Shown here piece after piece: positions 1,055-51,339 of a stretch of 64,000 nt of DNA (positions within the stretch are counted from its first letter, which is position 1; every line of letters begins with the position of its first letter). Both the position numbers and the translations under genes were made by a program. The notes beneath the pieces were generated by a model, which was given only the letters and a program-made list of their open reading frames with translations, was not told the origin of the DNA and ran no database searches. Source of the DNA: Candidatus Calditenuaceae archaeon HR02 (GTDB lineage Archaea > Thermoproteota > Nitrososphaeria_A > Caldarchaeales > Calditenuaceae); contig BEHE01000007.1 of NCBI GenBank assembly GCA_002898395.1, positions 9,048-73,047 on the forward strand. Reading direction: 5' to 3'.

Positions 1055-1609
1055 ATGCTGGGCACAGGATTTGGTGCGATACTGCTCCTTCTCTACCTCA
1101 CCTCACCCTTCCTTATCATCTTCACACTACTCATGCTGCTGGCTTTCAGGAGAGGTAGAGGGGTAGTCAGCGTTGGGCTGGGAGAAAGGAAGGCTCGGGC
1201 TATAGAGGTGGCCTGGCTAATAGGTGTAGGCTTGGCTTGGACAGTCATAAACCTGGTCAGCATACCCTGGCTCCCGTGGCTCCAGCCACTGGCCGCTACA
1301 ACTGGCCAGTCACCTTCAGAGCCTGCACAGGTCGTCAATGTTGAGGCCTTCATGTGGGGGTATACGCTCGACACCTATGAGGTCAGGACAGGTGCTGTAA
1401 AGTTTGTCTCCACCTCCCGAGACACGATCCACTCACTCACGATCTACTCGCCGCGGGGCGAAGTCCTCGCTACAGTGATGCTGATGCCAGGCATGAAGGA
1501 GGAGCTGGTCCTAAACCTGTGGGAGCCTGGAGAGTACATCATCAGGTGCCTAGAGTTTTGTGGTGACGGCCACTCAGCAATGCTCTCAAAGCTCAGGGTG
1601 ATGGGGTGA
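1055..1609 (+). CDS. Heme-copper oxidase subunit II (CuA cupredoxin domain) with N-terminal transmembrane helices
   Basis: The C-terminal motif is a canonical CuA site: H...CLEFCGDGHSAM, i.e. C-x-E-x-C-G-x2-H-x2-M. The N-terminus is hydrophobic. Confidence 0.75.
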   Translation: MLGTGFGAILLLLYLTSPFLIIFTLLMLLAFRRGRGVVSVGLGERKARAIEVAWLIGVGLAWTVINLVSIPWLPWLQPLAATTGQSPSEPAQVVNVEAFMWGYTLDTYEVRTGAVKFVSTSRDTIHSLTIYSPRGEVLATVMLMPGMKEELVLNLWEPGEYIIRCLEFCGDGHSAMLSKLRVMG

Positions 1610-1610
1610 G

Positions 1611-3083
1611 ATGCTCTCGCAAATTAGGCTTGAGGATCTGACGTTCTATCCGAGGCTGATGGTTCTCTCCGCTATTGCCTGGTTCTTCGCGGGCGGAGTA
1701 GCCGGGCTCACAATGGTGGTCGCACACCTTACAGGCGCGCTCAGGGTCCCGGACTACAACATGCTCCTCACATTCCACGGACTGGTGATGCCTTTCGGCG
1801 GCTTATTCCAGCTCATGATGGGTCTCTCACTCCTGAGGGCGGGCTTCTGCTACGGCAAACCTGTGAAAGGGGTTCTAGTAAGAGCCGCATACATCACCCT
1901 CAACTTAGGCCTAATCCTACTGCTCGCAGGCATTTTTGCATTCCAAGTGAGAACGAGCTATACTCTAATGTTCCCACTACCGGCTGCGGGCGTCTTCAAG
2001 GGGCTCTGGCCGCTGGAAGGTCTAATAGTTTTTGTGTGGGGCATCATCTTAATACTAGCCGTTAACATCGCCCTATACCCAGCGGCGCTTGCGAGGCTGA
2101 TCTTCGGTGGAAAGACACAAGAAGCCCTCGTGCTGGAGAGATTCGTGGGGACTATCAACCCCTCCGGGATGGCAAGCATGCTCCCCTACATCTTCATCAT
2201 CCCCCCTCTCGGCTCCGCAATCACCATAGGTGCACTGACAATAGGTCTCGCGCTACTCGGCATAATACCTCTGAGCTCGGCGGGCTGGGTATTGCAGCCC
2301 TTAAACTTCAACTATCCCTTCTGGATCTGGGCCCACAACCTGATGGAGGCGATGGGCATAATGGCTTTGGGCACCGTCTACTGGCTCACCCCCCGCTATA
2401 CAGCCGTGTTGGGAAGTTCTGAGGGTGTGGAGCCGAGGCTTTACAGCGAGAAGCTTGGCATCTTAGCGATTATATTCTATTCCGCCGCAGCGGTAATGGC
2501 CTTCCCACACCACCTATTCACAATGCCTACATCCCAGCCGGTGGGGCTTAGCTACACGGGCCAGGTAGCCAGCTGGCTGACAGGGTTCGGGGCGGCCTTC
2601 TCCGTCTTCAACGTACTCGCAACCGCATACGCCTTCGGCCTGAGGCTCACGCCCGCCTCTCTAGCAGCCATGCTCGGGTTTGCGGTCTACATAGTCGACG
2701 GATTCCTCGCGATGCAGCTGGGGACAATCGGCTGGGCGTACAGGCTTCACGGAACCTACGCAGTAACCGCTCACCTCATGACGATACTCCTCGCTGTATC
2801 TCTAGTCTGGATAGGCGCACTCTATCACAGCTACAGACTCCTCTTCGGCACTGATGTAAACAGGAGGCTCGCATACATCCATATCGTGTTGACAGCTGTG
2901 GCGGCGCTAGGCCTGTTTTATTTCATGGCCTTTATGGGAGGTTCTGGAGTCCCTAGAAGGGCCTACCCGCTTCCAATAGCCAGCGATGCAGGAGTGTTGG
3001 GTCTTGTGGGCTTTGGAGCAATTCTAGCAGCGGCCCAGACCATCTTCCTATTCCAGCTCTTTAAATCCCTGAAGGCAACATAG
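1611..3083 (+). CDS. Heme-copper oxidase superfamily subunit I-like polytopic membrane protein (divergent, 490 aa)
   Basis: About 12 predicted transmembrane segments. His-containing motifs FHGLVMPFGG (TM2-like) and FPHHLFTMP (the CuB HH pair) are present. It directly follows the CuA subunit, with start and stop overlapping. A GHPEVY-type motif and the TM10 H-x-H pair are not obvious. Confidence 0.55.
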   Translation: MLSQIRLEDLTFYPRLMVLSAIAWFFAGGVAGLTMVVAHLTGALRVPDYNMLLTFHGLVMPFGGLFQLMMGLSLLRAGFCYGKPVKGVLVRAAYITLNLGLILLLAGIFAFQVRTSYTLMFPLPAAGVFKGLWPLEGLIVFVWGIILILAVNIALYPAALARLIFGGKTQEALVLERFVGTINPSGMASMLPYIFIIPPLGSAITIGALTIGLALLGIIPLSSAGWVLQPLNFNYPFWIWAHNLMEAMGIMALGTVYWLTPRYTAVLGSSEGVEPRLYSEKLGILAIIFYSAAAVMAFPHHLFTMPTSQPVGLSYTGQVASWLTGFGAAFSVFNVLATAYAFGLRLTPASLAAMLGFAVYIVDGFLAMQLGTIGWAYRLHGTYAVTAHLMTILLAVSLVWIGALYHSYRLLFGTDVNRRLAYIHIVLTAVAALGLFYFMAFMGGSGVPRRAYPLPIASDAGVLGLVGFGAILAAAQTIFLFQLFKSLKAT

Positions 3084-3132
3084 ACAGGCGCGACATGGTA
3101 TAGGGCAAACAGTCTGACCCACACTCAACCAC

Positions 3133-4350
3133 TCACTCGAGGCTGTGCATCATCCGGAGTGCCATTACTATGCCGCCCAGATATAGGGCAGAGATGGCAA
3201 TTGTTGCGAGTGGTGTGCCAGGCGACCCGGCTAGGAACCAGGAGACCCTTAGCACGTTGCCGGCGTTGAGAAGGGCTGCAGGGTATAGTGTGAGGCCGGC
3301 GTAAGGGATTCTCGCCGACATTAGTCCAGGCATCAGTATTGGCGCGTAGGCGAGGATCATGTTGCCTATAAACCCGATGGCTATAGAGTGTATGTATGCG
3401 TCCCTGAGAGTGTACCATAGCGGATGCGCCAGCAGCAGGCTGACCGAACTCGACGCAGATAAGAGACACCCTGCTAAAAGCCAGATTGACGCAACCCTGT
3501 ACAGCGCCGAGAAGTATAGATACCTGACCCTATCCCTTTCCCTCATCCGCGCGTACTGCTCGCCTGACTTGACCCGTCTGAGGGCGTCGACAGAAACCAC
3601 CCAGACAGCCGATGCCAGCAGATACCCTACGGATGCGGCCAGCTCCAGGGACTCGCTGTGAAGGAGTGCCGCTGCCGAGGCCGCTGCAGAGGATGCTGTG
3701 TGTAGTGGGGTGACCAGCCACCAAGCCCTCCTCCTCAGTTTAGTGTCCACCCGGAAGTGGACCGTCCTTATCCCAACACCCATTACCATTCCAGCTGGAG
3801 CACCTAAGAGGAGTATCAGTAGTAGGCCTGGTCTGCCGAAGGCATGAGCGCTCTCAAGCTCAGCGAAAATTGTTAGGGCTAAGGAGAGAGGCATAAGTGT
3901 CATCGACGCAGATATGAGTGGGTCGGCTGCGGCCAGAGGGCCGGAGGGCCTACCCAGCGCCCATACGGAATAGAAGGCTGCAGAGGATGTACCTGCTAGA
4001 GCAGCTAGATAGCTGAAGAGCCAGGCCACAGTACCTGGCTCCGCAAAAGTGAAAAACCATACACCTACGGTCATGACTATGAGGGAAAAGACCCTGAGGC
4101 CGAGATAACTCGAGGGTTCCACGTTTTTGAAGCGCTGGACAAGAACCATCGCCACAGAGACTATGAAAACGTAGACGAATCCAAAGATCATTAGTTTGGG
4201 GTGTACCAGTGCTGACGGAGTGAAGGGTAGGGCGCCTGAGAGTGAGAGAAGCCACACCGCACCTAGAACAGCCCCTAGAACGCCGCTAATTGTTGCAAAA
4301 GACACCCCAAGTATGAGTACTAGTCGGGCAGACCGGAGTCTCTGCTCCAA
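3133..4350 (-). CDS. Polytopic membrane protein, function unknown, convergent with the oxidase genes
   Basis: A 405-aa ORF that is strongly hydrophobic with more than 10 predicted transmembrane helices. I recognise no family motif. Confidence 0.4.
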   Translation of the reverse strand: MEQRLRSARLVLILGVSFATISGVLGAVLGAVWLLSLSGALPFTPSALVHPKLMIFGFVYVFIVSVAMVLVQRFKNVEPSSYLGLRVFSLIVMTVGVWFFTFAEPGTVAWLFSYLAALAGTSSAAFYSVWALGRPSGPLAAADPLISASMTLMPLSLALTIFAELESAHAFGRPGLLLILLLGAPAGMVMGVGIRTVHFRVDTKLRRRAWWLVTPLHTASSAAASAAALLHSESLELAASVGYLLASAVWVVSVDALRRVKSGEQYARMRERDRVRYLYFSALYRVASIWLLAGCLLSASSSVSLLLAHPLWYTLRDAYIHSIAIGFIGNMILAYAPILMPGLMSARIPYAGLTLYPAALLNAGNVLRVSWFLAGSPGTPLATIAISALYLGGIVMALRMMHSLE

Positions 4351-8459: not shown

Positions 8460-8646
8460 GTAGGATAAATTCTGTTAGACGCGTATTTCGGGCTTACCAT
8501 ACAGCTCAGAGGCACTATTAGACTCGGAGTTTGTCAAGGACTTGGGGACGATTATTAAAGCAAATCCCTACTCTACATAGAGCCTGTCAAGTCAGCATAA
8601 AGTAATGCAAGGCCTCGCCTTTACAAAATCCGTACGCACCCTTTTT

Positions 8647-8953
8647 GGGGGCGTGCGGCCCGTAGCCCTCCTTCTGTTTTAGGCGGGATTGGTCTTCTCG
8701 GCTCTCCGCGGGCCTCGCCGGCGCTTCTCATCGGCCCGGCGCGCCTTTCCCCGTCAGGGTCGCCCGTTTCATCCATTCTCCACCACTCGTCGCCGCCTCT
8801 GGTTGGCGGGTCAACCTCATCTGCGGTGGAGGGGTCTCGTTTCTGTGGCGTTGCCGTGGGTCTCCCCGCCCACCTCGCGGTGGCTGACTGCACCGGTTGG
8901 GGGGAGGAACTTCCTCGGGAGCTACCCCGTGGCCCGCCCGGCCGCTCGCCCCC
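8647..8953. ncRNA. GC-rich (about 70%) block of about 307 nt closed by a terminal stem; candidate structured RNA, identity and strand unknown
   Basis: The 5' end GGGGGCGTGCGGCC can pair with the 3' end GGCCGCTCGCCCCC. There are internal long stems such as CTCCACC...GGTGGAG. The only ORFs are low-complexity Arg/Pro-rich ones overlapping on both strands. The block sits in a 520-bp gap between folP and xdhC. Confidence 0.3.
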
Positions 8954-8979
8954 AATAAAGAAGATGGGCGGGGAAGGGT

Positions 8980-9906
8980 TTATTCCTTGTCTTTGAGGGC
9001 AGTGGTGGTGCTGTCGCAAGATACGTTACTTAGAGATATTGCTGTCTCGGTCTCCTGGCTTGTCTGGGTCAGGCCGGCCTCGGCCTTCCTGGCCACAGGT
9101 ACACCCCTAATTCTCGCCACCACCTCGGCCAATATTGAAAGAGCTATCTCCTCCGGCATCTTCGCGCCTATATCGATACCCGCGGGCGAGCTTATCCTTG
9201 CTATGAACTCTTCACGCACCCCCCTCTCCCTGAGAAGCTCCAGATTCCGCAGAGCCCTCTTCCTACTGGCCATCAGCCCCAAATAGAGTGGTGTCTTCCC
9301 CGAGATGGCCTCGAGGACCTTAACATCCCTCTCCCCCTTAGTCAAGACTACGACGCAGTCCCGGGGCCCTATCTCCAGTTTGGAGAGGTCGAAGTCTATA
9401 TCTGATATCAGCCTGTCAGGCTCCGCCTCCAACATAGGCATAGGGTCGATGACCCAGACCTCGAAGCCTAGGATCTTCCCAATCCTGACCAGGGCCTCCT
9501 CCACATCATCCTTCCCTCCCTGGCCTATGATGAATAGACGCCTCGCAGGCGTAATCGGGTCGACAAAGATCTCCATAGTACCTCCACAGAAGGTCTCGAC
9601 GAATATCTCATCCCTGCTACCCGAGGTGGCCATACCCCTCACAGCCTCCTCTGTGCTCTCGAGATGCACCTTAACCAGCCTAGGCTCCTCCTCCCTTATA
9701 CACTCTAATGCTATAGAGATGATAGGGCCCTCTGGACAGACTCCCCCCAGAGTCCCATAGACAATCTCCCCCTTATCATCAACCACCATTTTAAACCCTG
9801 GCTTCCCCAGGCTTGAGCCGGAAACCCGAACAACCGTAGCGACAGCATAAGGGCGCCGCTCAGCCTCAAGCCTAGAGAGAGCCTCACCCAGAGACCTATA
9901 TGGCAT
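8980..9906 (-). CDS. XdhC/CoxI-family accessory protein (molybdenum-cofactor insertion chaperone-like)
   Basis: An N-terminal XdhC_CoxI-like segment (YAVATVV...GSSLGKPGFKMVV) and a C-terminal Rossmann-like segment (RLFIIGQGG...VWVIDP). Confidence 0.6.
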   Translation of the reverse strand: MPYRSLGEALSRLEAERRPYAVATVVRVSGSSLGKPGFKMVVDDKGEIVYGTLGGVCPEGPIISIALECIREEEPRLVKVHLESTEEAVRGMATSGSRDEIFVETFCGGTMEIFVDPITPARRLFIIGQGGKDDVEEALVRIGKILGFEVWVIDPMPMLEAEPDRLISDIDFDLSKLEIGPRDCVVVLTKGERDVKVLEAISGKTPLYLGLMASRKRALRNLELLRERGVREEFIARISSPAGIDIGAKMPEEIALSILAEVVARIRGVPVARKAEAGLTQTSQETETAISLSNVSCDSTTTALKDKE

Positions 9907-16759: not shown

Positions 16760-17662
16760 TTGTGTAGGTATATGCAGTTTAAATATATCGATAATAGGGA
16801 CCTAATACGATGGTACATGAGCGAAGAGCAGGAGTTACCGGTTCTGGTTTCCACCGAGTGGGTTGCGAAAAACCTCAACAGACCCGATGTCCGTGTAGTT
16901 GAGGTCGACTATGACCCGCAGACAGCCTATTTTCAAGGACATGTGCGGGGGGCCGTCCTTTGGGACTGGAAAAAGGACATCAACGATCCTATAGAGAGGA
17001 ACATCATCAGTAAGGAGGGGTTCGAGTCCCTCTGCTCGCGTAGCGGAATCTCAAATGACACCCACATAGTCCTTTACGGCGATTTCAACAACTGGTTTGC
17101 CGCCTTCGCATTCTGGGTTGCTAGACTTTACGGCCACCAGAAGTTGAGTATAATGGATGGTGGTAGGAAAAAGTGGATAGCTGAGGAGAGGGAGCTTGTG
17201 AAGGAGGCCCCTAGCCCAGCCCCGACCAGTTATAAGGTCACTAAGGTTCGATATGAGTATAGGATTCTTCTACCTGATGTCCGCGCAAGGCTCGGGAGCC
17301 CCACGGTAGCTTTAGTCGATGTGAGGTCGCCGGATGAGTATACTGGAAAAATCTTAGCTCCTCCCGAGTATCCTACAGAGCACGCGCAGAGGGGAGGCCA
17401 CATTCCTGGCGCAGTAAACATACCGTGGGCACGGGCACTTAACGAGGACGGCACCTTCAAACCCATCGAGGAGTTGAGAAGGCTCTACCAAGGCATGGGA
17501 GTGACGCCTGATAAAGAGGTGATAACCTACTGCAGGATTGGTGAGAGATCGTCCGTGACGTGGTTTGTTCTCAAGGAGTTGCTCAAGTATCCTAAAGTCA
17601 GGAACTATGATGGAAGCTGGAGCGAGTGGGGCAACGTAGTCGGCACACCAATAGAGAAATAA
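16760..17662 (+). CDS. Two-domain rhodanese (thiosulfate/3-mercaptopyruvate sulfurtransferase)
   Basis: Tandem rhodanese domains with the active-site loop YCRIGERSS. The true start is probably the internal MSEEQ near 16817. Confidence 0.8.
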
Positions 17663-17687
17663 GCCGAGAGGGTAGTTATCCTAGGCT

Positions 17688-18365
17688 GTGGTGGAAGAAA
17701 TCCAAGCCTGCGGCTTCTCGAGCAACCACCTATACTTTCTCGAAGAGATGCTGTGGCTGAGCCCGATTCGGGACAGAGTTTTTAGAGTCGGAATACTACC
17801 AATTACTCAGACTCTTTGGGGTAAGGTAACCTCAGTAAGTGTTAAGCAGCCTGGTGACGAGGTTGCGGCGAACAGGGCTATCTGCCTTATAGAATCCCGT
17901 AGATTCTTAGGCAATGTCAGGGCTCCTTTCGACCTGAGGATAGAGCGCCTCAACATGGAGGCTGTTGAGCGGCCTTGGATTTTGCAGAGGGGCTTCGGCG
18001 AGGCTGCCTGGCTCTGCGAAGTGGCCGCCTTAGAGGATAATTGCTTGACCAGGCTGAAGAGTTGGAGCGAGATAAGGGGGGAGGTAGAGAGGATGATCAG
18101 CGAGAAGGGGATAATCTGTTTCAGAGAAGTGCCAGACTATGTACACGCCGCGATCGGGATTGACTGTAGCCAGCTACTTATGGTGCTCTCAGACAAACTT
18201 GAAGGTCTTCCTGAGGGAAGCATCATCCACATAGTTGCCGACTATAATGAGGGGGCTGAGAAGGATTTGGAGAAGTGGAGCAGAATTACGGGGAACGAGG
18301 TGCTGGACTTTAGGGTAGAGAAGAGGCTTGCCCACGCGCTGATTCGCCGTAGGACCCAATTTTAG
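17688..18365 (+). CDS. Fusion of a GcvH-like domain (lipoyl-Lys position replaced by Arg) and a TusA-like domain (CPxP replaced by DCSQ)
   Basis: The N-terminal half aligns to the H-protein (VGILPITQTLWGKV...ICLIESRRF...APFDLRIERLN). The C-terminal half aligns to TusA (GIDCSQLLMVL...GSIIHIVADYNEGAEKDLEKWSRITGNEVL). Confidence 0.5.
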   Translation: MVEEIQACGFSSNHLYFLEEMLWLSPIRDRVFRVGILPITQTLWGKVTSVSVKQPGDEVAANRAICLIESRRFLGNVRAPFDLRIERLNMEAVERPWILQRGFGEAAWLCEVAALEDNCLTRLKSWSEIRGEVERMISEKGIICFREVPDYVHAAIGIDCSQLLMVLSDKLEGLPEGSIIHIVADYNEGAEKDLEKWSRITGNEVLDFRVEKRLAHALIRRRTQF

Positions 18366-18410
18366 CTCAAGAATTAAACTTTTATTCCACGAGTCTCTTC
18401 TCCGTGGTGA

Positions 18411-20831: not shown

Positions 20832-21282
20832 TTACGTAGAACCACCAATCAATATGATATAAACGTGTCTAAACCACGCCAGCTTAAAAGCAGCATTATA
20901 GAAAGTGGTGGCGAGGTGTGTGGAGCGTTTTAGCGTAGGCCACGCCCGACCGTCTAAGCGGCTCGGGCGATTGGGAGTGGCGCGCTGAGGGCGTCCGGCC
21001 TAAGCCTCCGCCCGTACACGCCCACCCCATCAACCCCCTCTTCTAGGGGAGCCCTCGTCGGGGCCCAAGGCCCGTTGCCAGGCCCTATAGGCCCCGATTG
21101 GCCGCCTATTTTTGGGAGTGGCTTCGGGCTTAGATGCTTTCAGCCCTTATCCACAGGGGCGCGGCTGCCCGGCGCCGCCCTGTAGGACGACCGGTAAACC
21201 GTTGGCCCCGGCCCTCCGTTCCTCTCGTACTAGGAGGACCTTTCCCTCAGGCGGCCCGCACCCCCAGTAGGTAGAAACCGAT

Positions 21283-21325
<43 letters not shown>

Positions 21326-21959
21326 AGGCGAGCAGCCTCACCCTTGGCCCCTGCTGCGAGGCCAGGAGGGGAAGAGCCGACATCGAGGTACCAAGCCGCG
21401 GGGTCGATGGGGACTCTCGCCCGCGACGAGCCTGTTATCCCTGGGGTAACTTTTCTGTCACCACCGGCCCCCACTGGTAGGAGCCGATGGATCGCTAGGC
21501 CCGGGTTTCCCCTCAGGACCCCTTGCGTTCGAGGGTCCTGTCAGGCCGGCTTATGCCCTTGCACTCTACAGCGGGTTTCTGTCCCGCCTGAGCCGACCTT
21601 TGGGCTCCTCCGATATCTTTTCGGAGGAGTGCCGCCCCAGCCAAACTGCCCACCAGCCGTTGTCCCAGGGTCAGGCCCTGGTTAGCGGGGCAGTCCGGAG
21701 TAGCCGGTGTTACATTGGCGCCTCCCCAGGCCCCCGGAGAGACCTGGATCGACGGCTCCCGGCTACGCTATGTACTCCAGACCACTCCGCAGCAACTGGC
21801 TGCAGTAAAGCTCCACAGGGTCTTCTCTCCCCACTGGGGGTTCGTGGACTGTTCGCCCACGTTATGTGGGTTCACGGGGCTCCGGGCCGGGACAGTGGGG
21901 CCCTCGTTGATCCATTCATGCACGTCGGAACTCACCCGACAAGGCATTTGGCTACCTTA

Positions 21960-22700
21960 AGCATGCCCGACCGAATGGTCGGGGTTGGACCATATCATCA
22001 CCCATTAAGGGTGCGCGGCGTATGGTCTCTGAGGATCCCGCCCTCAACTAATATTTTCCGGAGTTTCTCCGCCTTTTCAGGGTGTCTGAAACCCACCTTC
22101 TCCGAGAACTTCTCCACATTGTCCCACCCCATCACGGTTAGCCTCCATTGATAGTGTCTTCCCCATGTGTGGGGTTTTTTACGGTTATAGGTAGATGATA
22201 TCTCGTTTAACTGCAGTATGTGGTGTGCCTCTACAAGCACTTTTTTCGCGACCATGTCGATGCTGACGTAGGGATAGCGAAACTTCTTCATGCCCTGAGT
22301 CTGAACATCTATCCCGCAGTATCCTTCACTGTCGAACAGCCCCTTCACGACGTCGATATCGTGTTTAAACAATTCCGGTATCTGCGCGCTGACGAGCTTC
22401 CGCCCCTTCGGGAACCCGATCCTCAACAAGAAGTCATGTACCTTCCTAACATTCGTGGAGACTATGTAGAGGCTTTTACTTGCGCGCCGTATGTTTGGCT
22501 TGACTCCGAAAAGCTCTTCAACCGTGGCGGCGATAAAGTTGGCGAACTCGAAGTTAGGGTCTCGGCAGAAGACCGTGTAATAGTTGCCGTAGACGCCTCC
22601 GTCTCCCAGCATCACTCCAATGAGGTAGGCTAGACTCATCTGCTGTCCGCTGACCTTCAGCCTTTATAGCTGTTTCACAGGGCGGTTTCCTGCGGGTCGG
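21960..22700 (-). mobile_element. rRNA intron 1 (archaeal BHB-type, domain IV, just 5' of the GGTAGC...AAGGTAGCC block) carrying a homing-endonuclease ORF
   Basis: rRNA sequence conservation breaks between about 22700 and 21960 and resumes with CTTAAGGTAGCC. The segment contains a full LAGLIDADG ORF. Boundaries are approximate. Confidence 0.6.
21998..22639 (-). CDS. LAGLIDADG homing endonuclease (double-motif, intron-encoded)
   Basis: Motif 1 LAYLIGVMLGDGG and motif 2 VVKGLFDSEGY. 213 aa, the size of I-DmoI/I-PorI-class enzymes. Confidence 0.85.
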   Translation of the reverse strand: MSLAYLIGVMLGDGGVYGNYYTVFCRDPNFEFANFIAATVEELFGVKPNIRRASKSLYIVSTNVRKVHDFLLRIGFPKGRKLVSAQIPELFKHDIDVVKGLFDSEGYCGIDVQTQGMKKFRYPYVSIDMVAKKVLVEAHHILQLNEISSTYNRKKPHTWGRHYQWRLTVMGWDNVEKFSEKVGFRHPEKAEKLRKILVEGGILRDHTPRTLNG

Positions 22701-23444
22701 ATTCACGGTGCTACGGGATTGTTACCCGCGCGGGGTACCCATAGCCTCCTCCTTCCCCGCATACAGCCGCGTTTAACGACCCCCTTGAACTTGAGGGTCA
22801 GAGTTACCCCCGGCGCTAACCGGCCCTTATCCCGGTTGGACCCGGGGTTCAGGTACCGGTGCTGGCCAGGATTGAGGAGCCGTTCAAAGCCTTTCGGCCT
22901 AGCGGCTCCCTATGTTTTTATTAAACAGTCAGGACCCCCTTGTCACTGCGACCTACCAACCCACCCTCACCGGGCAGGAAGGCAGGCACCCCTTCTCCCG
23001 AAGTTACGGGGCCAATTTGCCGAGTTCCCTAGCCCGGAGTAACCCCAGACGCCTTGGCCTTCTCAGCCAGGGGCACCTGTGTCGGATCTAGGTACGGTCT
23101 CTCGGGATCGTTCCGGGCTCCCTTTTCACTGGCCCCAGGGTCCAGCCGAAGCGGCCTTAAGGCCGCCCCATCCCTCCATTCACCTGGTTCTCGCCATTAC
23201 GGCTCTCCCCAGGCTTGGGAGGTTAGACAGGGCTACGGCCCTGCTCGGCCTTACCTGAGGCGTCGGGAGCCCGGCTTGCGTCGCCGCACCTACCCGAGAG
23301 GCACCGGAATCTTAACCGGTTTCCCCTTCGGCCTACCCGGTTAAGGTCGGCCTTAGGACCGGCTTACTCCCGGCTGACGACGCATTGCCGGGAAACCCGT
23401 GCCCTTCCGGCGGAGGGGATATGGGGAGAGGTCGCAGGACCGTG

Positions 23445-24005
23445 TTCTCCCAAAAAGCGAACAGGTCAAGAAGGAAGGTATTGTAAACTCTGATTGAAAG
23501 TGTCCCGAATTTTGAACGTGAACTCCGTAAGCCCCACCTAACTGAAGGCTTACGGAACTGTGATAATGGTATGTTTAACAAGTTAGACCAGTATTCCTCC
23601 AGTTCCTTCACCCTGTCCGTCCACTCGTCCTTGCGGAGCTTGATTTGTAGCCTAGGCCTTAGCTCGCTTCTCGCTACTCCGAGTGTTTCGAGGAAGTTTA
23701 CCATAGCGAGTAGCTTGTTAGGATCGCTGTTGACGAATTCGAACCTCGTCTTCACAGTTTTAGGTCTTTTAGTGCCTTCACCAGCATAAAGACCAAGAAC
23801 GTACCGAATAGCACCGCTGAGACGTAACGGCGAATCTTCATTGCGCCTACGCGGCCGTTCCCGTACTTGAACCGAAGAGTCACCTTATCGTCCTCTACGG
23901 TCTTCTTAAGTACTTTGGTGTGGTCTAACGTCTCCGGAATGAGCTCTGCTAGGTCTACGTAGCTCATCCTTTAAGTAGAGTTACGTGACAACAAGTAGTT
24001 AAAAG
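23445..24005 (-). mobile_element. rRNA intron 2 (domain III region), about 560 nt, with a decayed endonuclease ORF
   Basis: AT-richer insertion between exon sequences GAGAGGTGCAGGGCCGTC (5') and GGTCCTGCGACCTCTCCCC (3'), which are mutually complementary and form a helix around the junction. The flanking exon sequence aligns to conserved domain III blocks. Confidence 0.5.
23455..23967 (-). pseudogene. Degenerate, frame-split homing-endonuclease remnant inside intron 2
   Basis: Two adjacent minus-strand ORFs in different frames (23752-23967 and 23333-23755). The second has a segment, DPNKLLAMVNFLETLGVARSEL, that resembles the second LAGLIDADG helix region of I-DmoI (NKALLEIVSRWLNNLGV). No intact first motif is present. 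Confidence 0.35.
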
Positions 24006-25198
24006 TTTGACGGCCCTGCACCTCTCTTTCCCACCCCTCTTCGCTGTCTACTACCACCGGGATCTACATTAGCGGCCGGTCCACGGGACCTCACGGCCCC
24101 GCTTCTACCCAACCGCTACGCCCCCCTACCCCCACCCACGCAGCGCGTGAGTGAGCCCGGGTTTCGGCGGCCCGCTTAGACCCGTCAATTTTCGGGGCCC
24201 CCATCCTCGGCGGGTAAGCTGTTACGCACTTCTTAGCTGATGGCTGCTTCTAAGCCTACAGCCCCGCTGTCTCAGGATGGAGACGCCCTTTGGTTTGTCA
24301 CTTAGCGGGCACTTAGGGGCCTTAACCCGCGGTCTGGGTTGTTCCCCTCTCGGTCCCGGAGCTTACCCCCGGTACCCCACTCCTGGGATCTACGGTGCCC
24401 GCGGATTCGGAGTTCGAAAGGAGAGTGGAGCCTCATCGGCCCCTTGCTCCCCCATCGGTGCTCTACCCCGCGGGCAGCCTCCCCCAGGGCTGTCCTGCGA
24501 GACACTTCGGGGGGAACTAGCTATCACCGGGCTCGATTAGCTTTTAACCCCTAGCCCCAGGTCAGGGGACCGATTTGCACATCAAGACCCCTATTCGGGC
24601 CTCCACCAGGGTTTCCCCTGGCTTCGCCCTGCCCAGGGCTAGATCGCCCGGTTTCTAGCCTCACGGGCGTGACTACAGGCCCTTTCAGACCCCGCCCCTC
24701 GCCGGAGCACACTCCGGCTGCGGGCATGTCGGTTTCCCCACGCCTACGGGCTTTCAGCCCTTAGGCTCGCCACACCCGTGAACTCCCCGGCCCGTGATTC
24801 AAGACGGAGTGCACGACCCTGGGATTGTCCCCACTCGCCCCTCACCGGGGCTTCGCAGGGAATGCCCTTTCGGGCCGTGCTCGTCTGTTACCAGCCGGTT
24901 TCAGGCGCTTTTCACCCCCCTCTCGGGGTACTTTTCACCTTTGGCTCACGCTACTGGTCCACTATCGGTCTTGGGACGTATTTAGCCTTGGAGGCCAGTG
25001 GCCCCCAACTTCCCGCACCATATCCGAGGTGCGGTACTCGGGGACCGGAGCATCGCCCCTCCAGCCTTCGCCTACGGGGCTATCACCCTCTCTGGCCCCC
25101 CATTCCAGGGGAGTTCGGCTCAGCATTCAGGGCGGGCCTCCGGCCCCATAACCCCACACTCCCCCCGAGTTAACCTCGGGGGGTTCGGTTTGGGCTGC

Positions 25199-25232
<34 letters not shown>

Positions 25233-25589
25233 TTTGATTTCTTTTCCTCCCCCTACTTGGATGCTTCCGTTCGGGGGGTTCCCGATCCCGGACTGAAGGC
25301 CCGGGAACGAGGTGGCCGAAGCCACCCCAGGAGATCCCATTAGGAGATCCCCGGATCAACGCCCGCCTGCGGCTACCCGGGGCTTATCGCAGCTTGCCAC
25401 GTCCTTCTTCGGCGCCCAAGCCGAGGCATCCACCGGCTGGCGTACCCCCGCTTAGTGCCAAGGCGCGGCCTACTTCGCCACGCTCCACACACCTCTGCGG
25501 CGCGGTCATAGGAAAGTATTAGCCTCCTCCCGCATTCATGCCCCTCAGGACTTCATGGCTGAGGAGCAAACATCTCCGTGCGCAATAGA

Positions 25590-28320: not shown

Positions 28321-29748
28321 TTACTGGTTATATTTCCTGTGTAGCTCATCGGAGTATTCCCAGTACTTGAGAATGATTGGACACCACTCCTTCTCAGGAC
28401 AGTACCCCAAGTGTTTACACTTCTCGCCCATCACGCCCTTCAACCATGGAGCCGCCTTCTCCACCTCCCTCCAGAGCTTATACGCAATGGCCCTTTCCTC
28501 CCATTGGGCCGCGCTACAAGTCCTAGTCGCTAGGAACCCCATGGGGCTGAGGATGTTGTAGAGGTTGTAGCTCCTGACGACCCTGATCCTCATCGCGTTG
28601 GGGAGTGTGTAGAGGGCAGCCACAACCTCGTTCTCCTGCATGAGAGTAGAGTAGAGCGTGTGTAGTTCCTCGCAAGCATTGGTGAATAGTTGTGAGAGCT
28701 TGGGGCTAGACTTAATGGATGGGGGTACGACGAGGCCCTTCTCCGGACTCCTTGACCACCTCTCAGCAGCCTCAACCAGTGACTCAACAACGGTTGGCAC
28801 AGTCCTATGTCTTATTGCCTGGTGGTAGGCGGCGAGTGAGAGCGACTCAACTGTCAACGCCCTAACAAGGGGGGAGGCCTGCTCAGCAGCAAGGCCGTCA
28901 TGCCCTATATCCTCAATACCTCTAGGGTAATCGAAGGATAGAAGTTCGGCCTCCTCAGATGGTCTATCCCCACAAAGACGTTGGATCAGCCCATCAGGCT
29001 CCCTCAATGGGTCCGTGGCCGAGTAGTATCCCCACCGCGCCTTAAAACTGAGCCTAGAGTCTAGTAGAAGTGGTATTCTGCCGCTAGCCATCTCGAGGAA
29101 CCTGTTGACAAAGGCCCTCAGCTCCTTGCTGACTATCCCAACCCCGTCCTCCACCTTCCGGATAAAGTAGATGTGCGACTCGAGTGAGAGGGATGCGTAA
29201 AGCGAGGTGGCTGCGGCGAGCGGTGATAGGTATCGCGCATCTTCTAGTGGGACGCCCTCCCCACAGAGCGTTTTATAGGCCTCGAAGCATCTATCCATCA
29301 CCTTTGAAAATCTCCCCTCGAATTTTCCGTTCCTCAGCTCAGCGGGTGTCAGGAGCCTCTCCCTAGTCAGCGGGGCCCTCCGCTGGCTTTCCTGGAGATA
29401 GCTTCCGAAAACTGGGGCCACGAGCAGCATTGACAATAGGCGGCTACAGTTGGAGACTTCCCAGAACATGACCGCCGAAGTTGTAAGAGACGCATGCCCC
29501 CTCCTCGTTGATTCCCTGTGAACTTTTGCCGCTATCTTTGAGAGGTCCTTCCCCTTCGAGAGGGCGTCTAAGACCCGGTCCCGGATACTGACCCCCTGAA
29601 ACGTGCCGAGGCCCTCAAGAGCGATGACAACATCTGGCCCCAGCTCCAGCTCACCCTCCCTATAGACAGGCCCGGTGGAGAACAGAATGAAGACCAGCTC
29701 ATCAGTATACACGCCTTCTCGCCAAGCCACTACTACCCTCGCCTCCAT
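28321..29748 (-). CDS. Tandem ThyX-like (flavin-dependent thymidylate synthase family) protein with a Cys-rich C-terminal tail
   Basis: The C-terminal half matches the ThyX core: IRHRTVPT..., and LPNAMRIRVV...NFL...AAQWEERAIA parallels ThyX LPLNLYTRFF...NFLNLRADSHAQWEIQ. The N-terminal half resembles a second, more degenerate ThyX repeat. The tail reads CKHLGYCPEKEWC. Confidence 0.45.
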   Translation of the reverse strand: MEARVVVAWREGVYTDELVFILFSTGPVYREGELELGPDVVIALEGLGTFQGVSIRDRVLDALSKGKDLSKIAAKVHRESTRRGHASLTTSAVMFWEVSNCSRLLSMLLVAPVFGSYLQESQRRAPLTRERLLTPAELRNGKFEGRFSKVMDRCFEAYKTLCGEGVPLEDARYLSPLAAATSLYASLSLESHIYFIRKVEDGVGIVSKELRAFVNRFLEMASGRIPLLLDSRLSFKARWGYYSATDPLREPDGLIQRLCGDRPSEEAELLSFDYPRGIEDIGHDGLAAEQASPLVRALTVESLSLAAYHQAIRHRTVPTVVESLVEAAERWSRSPEKGLVVPPSIKSSPKLSQLFTNACEELHTLYSTLMQENEVVAALYTLPNAMRIRVVRSYNLYNILSPMGFLATRTCSAAQWEERAIAYKLWREVEKAAPWLKGVMGEKCKHLGYCPEKEWCPIILKYWEYSDELHRKYNQ

Positions 29749-50013: not shown

Positions 50014-51339
50014 CTACTGGATCTTATCGCTAACGCCTGCTAGGGATAGGAACTCCTTACTCAGCCGGGTGAGGGAGTAGAGTTCAACTCCAGCCTCGCG
50101 GAGGAGCTTCTCAGCACCCTCATTCCTATCAAAGATCACAAAATATTTGTCTATCACTCCCCCCTCCTCCCGAACAGCCTTTACACACTCAAGCGCACTA
50201 TTACCGGTGGTGACGACGTCGTCAACGCCCACATAGAGTGTCCCGGGCTTGACTACCCCCTCTACCTTTCTCTCAAGCCCGTGAGCCTTTCTCTCCATCC
50301 TAACGTAGACAAGCCCCACGCCGAGTCTGTCTGCGACAATGCTCGCTAGAGGTATTCCAGCCGTGGCTGTCGTCGCAATCTCGAAGCCAGACCTGCCAAC
50401 ACGTCTAGATACCGCCCCGGTCATGAGCCTGGCTATGAGCGACCTTGAGACTGGGTCAGAGTATAGCGACCTACAGTCTATGTAGATTCGGCTCCACCCT
50501 CCACTCGAGAGTTGGACCGGCTTCTCATATATGTTCAAGACTCCCTTCGTCCTGATTATCGCCCTACTGGCGAGGATGAACTCCCTCTGTCGCGATAGGG
50601 TCTCTGCGATGTTTGCAGCCTCCGCTACCGGGTCCTCTGCAAGTATTATCGTCCTCCCCACATTGATCAGTAATCTCTCACCACCGGCCCTGATCATGGG
50701 CATCGGATCCCCTCCTTGGGCGCCAAATCCCGGTGAAAGGATTATTGCCTCCTCACCAACTCTCTGCCTGATCTCTGCTATCTCCCCTTCATCGAGGCTT
50801 GACGAGAGCCCAACCACGAACCCATCCACCCCCGCCTCAACCCCTTCCTCAATAAACCTCCAGTAGAGTGGCTCACCATCCACTCTGCGACGGAAGTATT
50901 TCTCGCCGTATCTGCCCGATGGATGGGCGAGTAGGAATACGCCTAGCCCATGCTCATGCGCCTCATCCACCACCTCTCCGACGTTGCCGAAGAGGGGGTT
51001 GAGGGTAAAGGCATCGTAGCCCAGCCTCGCAATGGTGTTTACGCCGGCCTTGGCTGATTCGCCGATGTCCCCGAGCTTACAGTCCAGAATAGTTAAAAGG
51101 CTCAGTTTCCTCGCCAGCCCGGTTATGGCCCTGTGCCCATCCTCTCCGAGGCCGCGCAAGTGATTCTCGTTCAGCTTAACGGCTGAGCAAAACCTGCCGA
51201 GCTGCTGGATCCTATCGAGACAGAATCTAAGCCTTAGGCTTGGGTCGTGGTAGACCCACGGCGGCGGGTCGAGTCCAAGACATAGAATGCTGCCAGAGAT
51301 CTCGACGACCCTGTCATACCTCTCCTTGAGCAAAGACAC
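50014..51339 (-). CDS. pyrF-pyrE: Bifunctional OMP decarboxylase (N-terminal) :: orotate phosphoribosyltransferase (C-terminal) fusion
   Basis: The N-terminal 230 aa carry ODCase motifs (LDCKLGDIG, LSPGFGAQGGDP, VGRTIILAEDPVAEA). The C-terminal 200 aa carry the OPRTase PRPP motif (LYVGVDDVVTTGNSALE). It is one continuous 441-codon ORF. Confidence 0.7.
   Translation of the reverse strand: MSLLKERYDRVVEISGSILCLGLDPPPWVYHDPSLRLRFCLDRIQQLGRFCSAVKLNENHLRGLGEDGHRAITGLARKLSLLTILDCKLGDIGESAKAGVNTIARLGYDAFTLNPLFGNVGEVVDEAHEHGLGVFLLAHPSGRYGEKYFRRRVDGEPLYWRFIEEGVEAGVDGFVVGLSSSLDEGEIAEIRQRVGEEAIILSPGFGAQGGDPMPMIRAGGERLLINVGRTIILAEDPVAEAANIAETLSRQREFILASRAIIRTKGVLNIYEKPVQLSSGGWSRIYIDCRSLYSDPVSRSLIARLMTGAVSRRVGRSGFEIATTATAGIPLASIVADRLGVGLVYVRMERKAHGLERKVEGVVKPGTLYVGVDDVVTTGNSALECVKAVREEGGVIDKYFVIFDRNEGAEKLLREAGVELYSLTRLSKEFLSLAGVSDKIQ

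Follow-up and report, generated by a model that had tools for sequence, protein, structure and literature searches.

A rhodanese and an LbpA-like::TusA-like fusion protein as a candidate two-gene sulfur-transfer unit in Candidatus Calditenuaceae archaeon HR02

Introduction

A 64-kb stretch of DNA from the hot-spring organism Candidatus Calditenuaceae archaeon HR02 (Caldarchaeales, 'Aigarchaeota'), referred to here as the window, carries a rhodanese gene followed by a gene whose product joins an H-protein-like half to a TusA-like half. Two canonical motifs are gone from this fusion protein: the lysine that receives the lipoyl group, and the CPxP motif of TusA. The question raised by the locus is what such a protein does, and whether it belongs with glycine cleavage, as its GenBank record ('Glycine cleavage system H protein') states, or with sulfur transfer, as a sequence-only reading of the DNA had proposed. 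Sulfur oxidation of the sHdr type depends on LbpA, a protein with the H-protein fold whose contact with TusA is known from pull-downs. The comparisons of sequence and predicted structure below suggest that the fusion most likely works like a cysteine-based sulfur carrier.

Results

Architecture of the fusion protein

Both open reading frames (ORFs) of the flagged interval are present on the + strand in the ORF list, and their features are collected in Table 1. The second ORF starts with GTG, with the next GTG at 17691 as an alternative start (224 aa). Its translation has 100% identity to an HR02 protein in the sequence databases, while a look-up by exact sequence returned no record. Its product was modelled with AlphaFold 2 (AF2) on 15 homologues, which gave a predicted local distance difference test (pLDDT) of 92.2 and a predicted template modelling score (pTM) of 0.84, the latter suggesting a defined packing of both domains. 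In the model a helix joins the H-protein-fold half to the TusA-fold half. The fusion of these two domains had been proposed from the translation, and Pfam, AF2, Foldseek and hhalign agree on it, with both folds recovered by structure prediction.

The Pfam model GCV_H matches aa 15-129 (E 4.7e-11, 43.1 bits, above the cut-off of 22.2), and Foldseek places the N-terminal half on the GcvH structures 1onl and 3a8i with template modelling (TM) scores of 0.86-0.87 (1onl_A, E 8.5e-10, TM(target) 0.86). The C-terminal half scores just below the Pfam cut-off for TusA (aa 157-220, E 8.4e-6, 26.0 bits vs 28.6) and is matched by Foldseek to E. coli TusA (3lvj_C, E 6.8e-5, TM 0.80; 3lvk_B, TM 0.84). The family profile agrees, both with E. 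coli TusA in hhalign (probability 97.4%, E 9e-12) and with TusA/YhhP in the PDB (1dcj/3lvj, E 7e-11); as a single sequence this half had no match among PDB sequences, so that profile methods were required. The E. coli GcvH and TusA sequences used in hhalign were entered by hand. No PDB chain spanning both halves was found by Foldseek or by the profile search of the PDB. With the fusion as query, all NCBIfam models stayed below their curated cut-offs, and the sole Pfam model above threshold is the generic GCV_H.

A merger of two separate genes was rejected, since hundreds of loci have an uninterrupted ORF and a helix connects the two halves in the model. As a separate observation, one member of the P0023 cluster has its LbpA-like half (P0316, 112 aa) and its TusA-like half (P0318, 94 aa) annotated as distinct proteins of the same 5562-bp JGI contig; a frameshift, an assembly error or natural splitting of the fusion would explain this.

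Table 1. Features of the proposed two-gene unit and its immediate surroundings, in window positions.
Feature	Position	Strand	Basis
TATA-like element TTTAAATATAT; probable promoter	16778..16788	+	sequence read; ~30 nt 5' of the rhodanese ATG
Two-domain rhodanese / thiosulfate sulfurtransferase, 281 aa	16817..17662	+	Pfam, PDB matches
N-domain loop LYGDFNNW of the rhodanese, without Cys	17072-17095	+	residue positions read from translation
Catalytic loop CRIGERS of the rhodanese C-domain	17531-17551 (Cys239 codon 17531-17533)	+	residue positions read from translation
Shine-Dalgarno-like GAGAGGGT	17666..17673	+	within the 25-nt spacer, rhodanese stop to fusion start
LbpA-like::TusA-like fusion gene, 225 aa	17688..18365	+	ORF list; AF2
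LbpA-type H-protein domain and C-terminal helix, aa 1-146	17688..18125	+	Pfam GCV_H, Foldseek, hhalign, Cys signature
Cys8	17709-17711	+	GCxF(P/S)xxxLY motif on extra N-terminal strand
Arg72 in hairpin ESRRF, codon AGA	17901-17903	+	lipoyl-lysine position
Cys144	18117-18119	+	immediately follows C-terminal helix
TusA-type domain, aa 147-225	18126..18362	+	Pfam 26 bits, hhalign, Foldseek, profile vs PDB
Cys160	18165-18167	+	N-terminus of helix 160-172 (AF2)
AT-rich stretch GAATTAAACTTTTATT; possible terminator or promoter	18371..18386	+	between fusion stop and SIS gene
SIS-domain (PHI-like) protein, 385 aa	18411..19568	+	SIS/HxlB matches

An LbpA-type half without the lipoyl-lysine

The N-terminal half had been described as GcvH-like, and while the H-protein fold stands, the likeness is specifically to LbpA. 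In the definition of Cao et al. 2018, LbpA carries the lipoyl-lysine and two strictly conserved cysteines, one near each terminus, that are absent from GcvH (PMC6067878). Both signature cysteines are present in the fusion as Cys8 and Cys144, aligned with those of LbpA-type single-domain proteins, and because GcvH lacks them the N-terminal half is assigned on its sequence to the LbpA type and not to the plain GcvH type. The profiles point the same way. The fusion family profile aligns with validated LbpA2 over 137 columns that include the N-terminal cysteine motif (hhalign score 195, E 1.3e-32) and with E. coli GcvH over 114 columns (score 119, E 6.5e-20), and the A2 profile scores LbpA-type single-domain proteins at 122-132 bits and the best PDB GcvH at 92 bits.

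An exhaustive profile search of 1.84 billion representatives returned about 35 full-length fusion cluster representatives of 215-245 aa; a word-indexed search with the fusion protein returned 16 relatives only. The closest single-domain relatives in the exhaustive search are about 145 aa long and have the same C...K...C pattern. One of them (P0180, locus L022) lies in a cluster of GCV_H-DsrE-GCV_H-radical SAM-LplA-FAD oxidoreductase-radical SAM, which is the published lbpA/lipoate-assembly arrangement.

The lipoylation lysine was claimed to be missing from the fusion, and it is. Pairwise and profile alignments lay ESRRF on ESVKA with Arg72 at the lipoyl-lysine position and no lysine aligned there, and in the AF2 model Arg72 sits at the hairpin tip between strands 64-70 and 74-78. 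Its codon is a single transition from the lysine codon AAA. The lysine is present in each of the 95 LbpAs compiled by Cao et al. (PMC6067878).

In the TusA-type half, hhalign against E. coli TusA equates Cys160 with Cys19, Ser161 with Pro20 and Leu163 with Pro22. The position of CPxP reads C-S-Q-L, so that the catalytic cysteine is kept and the canonical motif is lost, in line with the sequence-only reading. The 15 closest homologues all have Arg72 and Cys160, which are therefore not sequencing errors. His181 is likewise invariant among close homologues but not across the family, where L, R, M or A also occur. Judged by these residues, the fusion should not be filed under GcvH, LbpA or TusA, because it lacks the lysine of the first two, and the CPxP motif and an above-threshold score for the third.

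A widespread family with fixed cysteines and a variable lysine

The fusion had been taken for an unusual isolated variant. It instead belongs to a widespread, unstudied family across Thermoproteati/TACK archaea in which arginine is the normal state. A metagenome scan found at least 429 loci encoding it, and named members come from Calditenuaceae, Caldarchaeum, Pelearchaeum, Bathyarchaeia, Thermoprotei/Thermoproteota and Candidatus Nitrosocosmicus. Database records call them 'hypothetical', 'GcvH', 'TusA family' or, in the automatic COG assignment of IMG, 'GcvH lipoate-binding protein/TusA-related sulfurtransferase'. No description of a GcvH/LbpA::TusA fusion or of a lysine-less LbpA was found in the literature, where coverage was incomplete and the result is absence of evidence only.

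Conservation was counted in two sets, 56 non-redundant fusion members and 80 metagenome loci (L025-L104). The TusA cysteine, Cys160, is kept in every one (56/56 and 80/80), Cys144 in 55/56 and 80/80, and Cys8 in 53/56 and 79/79. The lysine column behaves differently: it holds R in 40, K in 13 and another residue in 3 of the 56 members, and R in 48, K in 29 and another residue in 3 of the 80 loci. Arginine, at roughly 60-70%, is thus commoner than lysine, and K and R types are interspersed on a crude neighbour-joining tree. Among single-domain relatives with both cysteines, by contrast, the lysine is kept in 33 of 34. These alignments show that the constraint on the lysine is relaxed specifically in the fused family, with a basic residue preferred. 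Since arginine and lysine are mixed in the fusions and lysine is the rule in the single-domain relatives, lipoylation cannot be what the fused family conserves.

The two LbpA cysteines may act as a pair. The single member without Cys8 (P0026) also lacks Cys144, and among single-domain relatives 34 have both cysteines, 15 have neither and 18 have one; this co-occurrence, uncorrected for shared ancestry, suggests the pairing. Across the family Cys160 is followed by S, A, P, E, N or D, mostly giving CS or CA, and CPGP or CPET is kept in a few deep branches only.

The partner rhodanese and its linkage to the fusion

The first gene had been read as a tandem rhodanese, which is confirmed by the two stretches of its Pfam Rhodanese match (E 7.5e-36) and by full-length alignment with T. 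thermophilus rhodanese 1UAR (E 2.5e-94). It also aligns full-length with the M. tuberculosis thiosulfate sulfurtransferases (3AAX, E 9e-92; 3HWI). With tandem domains, a cysteine-free N-domain loop and a C-domain cysteine in a six-residue CRxGx[R/T] loop, the protein has the features of a conventional two-domain thiosulfate sulfurtransferase and is classed as one on its sequence; the N-domain is predicted to be inactive and the C-domain to carry the catalytic Cys239. A start at 16760 had been given for this gene. That TTG is probably too early and the ATG listed in Table 1 the real start, because orthologues are 280-283 aa long and the TATA-like TTTAAATATAT stands shortly before the ATG. This element is probably the archaeal promoter of a two-gene unit. 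The rhodanese and the fusion are probably co-transcribed, given the short spacer and the Shine-Dalgarno-like GAGAGGGT within it. The AT-rich GAATTAAACTTTTATT, possibly a terminator or the SIS gene's own promoter, likely marks the 3' limit of the unit.

Close relatives, with fusions 57-100% identical, share the gene order STT3/AglB, PAC2(-), rhodanese, fusion, SIS, MFS(-). Synteny among close relatives alone shows shared ancestry only. More distant loci carry the argument. The rhodanese precedes the fusion where the latter has 46% identity to the window protein (L007) and again at 42% (L021), where an ABC ATPase, an ABC-2 permease and SIS follow. In a Bathyarchaeia locus (L023, ~27%) the order is rhodanese, fusion, DsrE-like, TusA (CPEP) and IscS-like cysteine desulfurase, with a thioredoxin upstream. 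At 28% identity (L018) the fusion is followed by a convergent rhodanese, and at 24% (L019) it is divergent from a DsrE2-like gene, TusA (CPGP), an SQR-like flavoprotein and ArsR. Among the 80 metagenome loci, whose identity to the window protein was not computed, a convergent rhodanese lies 3' of the fusion in 53, with gaps of 4-300 nt; this arrangement occurs in 25 of 29 clusters at 70% identity. The co-directional arrangement, with gaps of 7-70 nt, is found in Caldarchaeales and one Bathyarchaeia locus.

In every case the partner belongs to one rhodanese orthologue group; it carries the YCRIGER loop and, where measured, has 62-79% identity to the window enzyme. Because this pairing persists in both orientations among fusions that share only about 25% identity, the linkage is strong evidence for a functional partnership. 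The claim of a sulfur-relay module thereby gains strong genomic support, the rhodanese being adjacent in most lineages and DsrE, TusA, cysteine desulfurase and SQR-like neighbours occurring elsewhere. For the window itself, we consider it moderately probable, from sequence, that the two genes form a two-gene sulfur-transfer unit.

The Calditenuis clade (L003, L006, L015-L017; fusion 41-45% identical) has no rhodanese within 8 kb. There the fusion is directly followed by an ABC ATPase and an ABC-2-type permease, and a divergent hemerythrin-domain gene(-) lies 5' of it (L003, L016). When the metagenome loci are sorted by the lysine column, the rhodanese is adjacent in 13 of 26 informative Lys-type loci and in 40 of 45 Arg-type loci, including two with a rhodanese about 3.5 kb away; this contrast is confounded by phylogeny, as two Lys-rich clusters lack the rhodanese.

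Discussion

A proposed cysteine-based carrier for the rhodanese

Altogether the evidence gives a somewhat better than even chance that the fusion is a cysteine-based, lipoate-independent acceptor or carrier of sulfane sulfur for the rhodanese. In Allochromatium and Hyphomicrobium TusA receives its sulfur from rhodaneses, and in Aquifex it co-purifies with LbpA (PMC11094781). Rhodaneses form a cysteine persulfide from thiosulfate and hand the sulfur on to thiol acceptors, of which dihydrolipoate is one (Silver and Kelly 1976, cited in PMC6067878). Starting from the architecture, the residues, their family-wide conservation and the gene linkage, we infer the transfer steps, the order of the cysteines and the donor as follows. 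The rhodanese would pick up sulfane sulfur, with thiosulfate or some other compound as donor, in the form of a persulfide on Cys239, and release sulfite. The sulfur would pass from Cys239 to Cys160 of the TusA-like domain. In the LbpA-like domain the Cys8/Cys144 pair, standing in for the dithiol of the lipoamide arm, would then either accept or resolve it. It would finally exit to a downstream acceptor, such as the DsrE-like or TusA proteins encoded in other lineages, or as sulfide.

A further step is possible but on balance doubtful: that an LbpA-type domain can function with no lipoate, the pair of signature cysteines forming an autonomous sulfur-handling site that is hard-wired to a TusA-type carrier and fed by a dedicated rhodanese. 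If true, there would be a lipoate-independent unit for processing thiosulfate or sulfane sulfur across Thermoproteati/TACK archaea, ammonia oxidisers included, and the flip between lysine and arginine would reflect repeated loss or irrelevance of the cofactor after the fusion to TusA.

Several observations weigh against the proposed carrier. CPxP shapes the cysteine loop of TusA, and because it is lost in the fusion, persulfide chemistry at Cys160 is not guaranteed. In the AF2 model a nine-residue strand separates Cys160 from Cys144, which lies at its far end. The fusion diverges faster than the rhodanese (71% vs 90% identity in L001, 42% vs 74% in L021), and this faster evolution fits an accessory or adaptor role. 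The rhodanese is missing beside the fusion in some lineages: the Calditenuis clade has the ABC-2 transporter and hemerythrin instead, and two clusters comprising 20 loci have plastocyanin-like, pirin and Zn-dependent alcohol dehydrogenase (Zn-ADH) neighbours, a context typical of ammonia-oxidising archaea. Finally, the window holds no gene for a downstream sulfur acceptor.

Alternative explanations

The three conserved cysteines, possibly together with His181, might bind a metal or an Fe-S cluster; the fusion would then sense redox state, carry a cluster or regulate, in place of carrying persulfide. Three near-invariant cysteines would suit such a site, as would the invariance of His181 in close homologues and, in the Calditenuis clade, the position of the fusion between a divergently oriented hemerythrin-domain gene and a downstream ABC transporter. 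We regard this as improbable, though it is the best placed of the alternatives, since His181 is not kept family-wide, every cysteine has a counterpart in a sulfur carrier (Cys19 of TusA, the two cysteines of LbpA), and the dominant neighbour encodes a sulfurtransferase and not a metal-handling protein.

It is a shade less probable again that the fusion is part of a dissimilatory sHdr-LbpA sulfur oxidation system encoded elsewhere in the genome, where it would take the place of separate LbpA and TusA proteins in supplying sHdr with sulfur. The N-terminal half is indeed closest to the sHdr-associated LbpA, and TusA, rhodanese and LbpA are known sHdr partners (PMC11094781; PMC6067878). The fusion nevertheless has arginine where the LbpAs of Cao et al. 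have their lipoyl-lysine (PMC6067878). A Pfam survey of the 64-kb window, covering every ORF of at least 90 aa except a few very short ones, found no Hdr-like, DsrE, separate LbpA/GcvH, lipoate-ligase, lipoyl-synthase or LipS gene; all statements here on genes absent from the window cover these 64 kb. Likewise, no shdr or dedicated lipoate-assembly genes stand beside the fusion in those family loci whose neighbours were examined, and Nitrosocosmicus-like genomes have members of the family too. The sequence-only reading had linked the module to sulfur oxidation of the sHdr type; this finds no backing in the window or in these loci, and some members lie in contexts like those of ammonia oxidisers.

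An inert adaptor or decoy is slightly less probable still. Here a look-alike of LbpA, not open to lipoylation, would serve to dock the rhodanese, or other LbpA and TusA partners, while its cysteines carry no sulfur. The fusion evolves faster than its neighbour genes and has lost both the lipoyl-lysine and CPxP, as such a protein might, but the three cysteines are conserved near-absolutely even in members just 22-25% identical to the window protein, which an inert scaffold would hardly account for.

That the fusion is a genuine glycine-cleavage H protein can practically be set aside: for all its Pfam GCV_H match, H-protein fold and source annotation, the missing lipoyl-lysine refutes it, the NCBIfam GcvH models score 45.3 against a cut-off of 117 and 28.1 against 115.85, the protein has LbpA-type cysteines and a fused TusA domain, and the Pfam survey found no gcvT, gcvP or other glycine-cleavage gene in the window.

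Comparison with known systems

Against LbpA (PMC6067878), the cysteine-carrier candidate described here has in common the H-protein fold, a cysteine near the N-terminus (GC..P..LxY), a cysteine after the C-terminal helix and the best profile match. It differs in the arginine at the lipoyl-lysine, the fused TusA-type domain and the lack of shdr and lipoate-assembly genes alongside. With TusA (E. coli TusA/YhhP, PDB 3LVJ, 1DCJ) it shares the alpha/beta fold and the cysteine at the N-terminus of helix 1, which corresponds to Cys19; a DDP-like motif is retained in the wider fusion family, and rhodanese is a known sulfur donor of TusA. Unlike TusA, it has CSQL for CPxP, a sub-threshold Pfam score, and the place of a domain in a larger protein rather than that of a free 8-9 kDa carrier. 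GcvH is similar in overall fold and hairpin geometry; the fusion departs from it in lacking the lipoyl-lysine, in having an extra N-terminal strand pair with Cys8 and an extra C-terminal cysteine, and in having no glycine-cleavage partners nearby.

Known relays are Rhd_2599-TusA-DsrEFH-DsrC in A. vinosum, Rhd442-TusA-DsrE3C in H. denitrificans and DsrE3A-TusA in M. cuprina (PMC11094781, PMC4175335). As in these rhodanese-TusA-DsrE relays, a rhodanese gene adjoins that of a TusA-type carrier, and relatives of the fusion also cluster with DsrE-like and free TusA genes. In the present case, however, the rhodanese has two domains, being of the 1UAR/CysA type, where the relays use a single-domain enzyme; the carrier forms one polypeptide with an LbpA-like domain, and no Dsr or sHdr oxidising module is linked.

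What the family offers

The family is widespread and mis-annotated, and it is not a new principle. A natural fusion of LbpA-type and TusA-type domains is independent 'Rosetta-stone' evidence that both domains act together. With the lysine dispensable and three cysteines fixed, the fused family is a natural experiment that separates cysteine from lipoamide chemistry, and it makes the role of LbpA's two cysteines directly testable. The family is also common in uncultured archaea of hot springs, peat and soil. Because databases name it 'GcvH', 'TusA family' or 'hypothetical', metabolic reconstructions risk counting the fusion as a component of glycine cleavage.

Neighbouring genes and other features of the window

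The SIS protein encoded downstream of the fusion (Table 1) is PHI/HxlB-like in its C-terminal half, has no Pfam match in its N-terminal half (aa 1-190) and is annotated '3-hexulose-6-phosphate isomerase'. Its family has 724 matches with at least 54% identity across Aigarchaeota, Thaumarchaeota and Bathyarchaeia, and behaves like a housekeeping gene: highly conserved, uncharacterised and far more widespread than the fusion. The gene is syntenic in Calditenuaceae and still linked in L021 beyond the inserted ABC pair. It was considered as a third member of the unit and downgraded, the SIS family being so much more widespread and conserved and an AT-rich, promoter-like stretch lying between the two genes; it is probably a mere neighbour. 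In one close relative, 85% identical, about 3 kb are inserted between fusion and SIS (L009, 8676-11662), with ORFs of 233 aa(-) and 139 aa(+) that have no Pfam match. A link to N-glycosylation through the upstream AglB/STT3 gene was rejected, as this synteny is confined to close relatives.

Elsewhere in the window, the 23S rRNA gene (20952-25457, - strand) is 4506 nt long against an archaeal model of 2987 nt, which leaves about 1.5 kb of insertions. One of these insertions contains an ORF of 213 aa resembling a LAGLIDADG_3 homing endonuclease (21998-22639, - strand), and the related locus L004 also has a LAGLIDADG ORF in the corresponding region. No 16S or 5S rRNA was detected within the 64 kb, and the rRNA genes therefore appear unlinked. 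An archaeal RNase P RNA is found at 8651-8949 on the - strand (Rfam RF00373, 156.8 bits); the ORF that overlaps it (8621-9019, - strand) is probably spurious.

Two proteins encoded on the - strand have uncommon layouts. The 441-aa ORF at 50014-51339 encodes OMP decarboxylase at aa 19-243 and a phosphoribosyltransferase domain at aa 321-411, and looks like a fusion of the pyrF-pyrE type. The 475-aa protein at 28321-29748 has two Thy1 (ThyX) stretches and about twice the usual length of ThyX, which suggests an internal duplication. At 1055-4350, genes for the heme-copper oxidase subunits COX2 (a weak match) and COX1 are followed on the opposite strand by a weakly matching NnrS-like membrane protein, a set consistent with an aerobic lifestyle.

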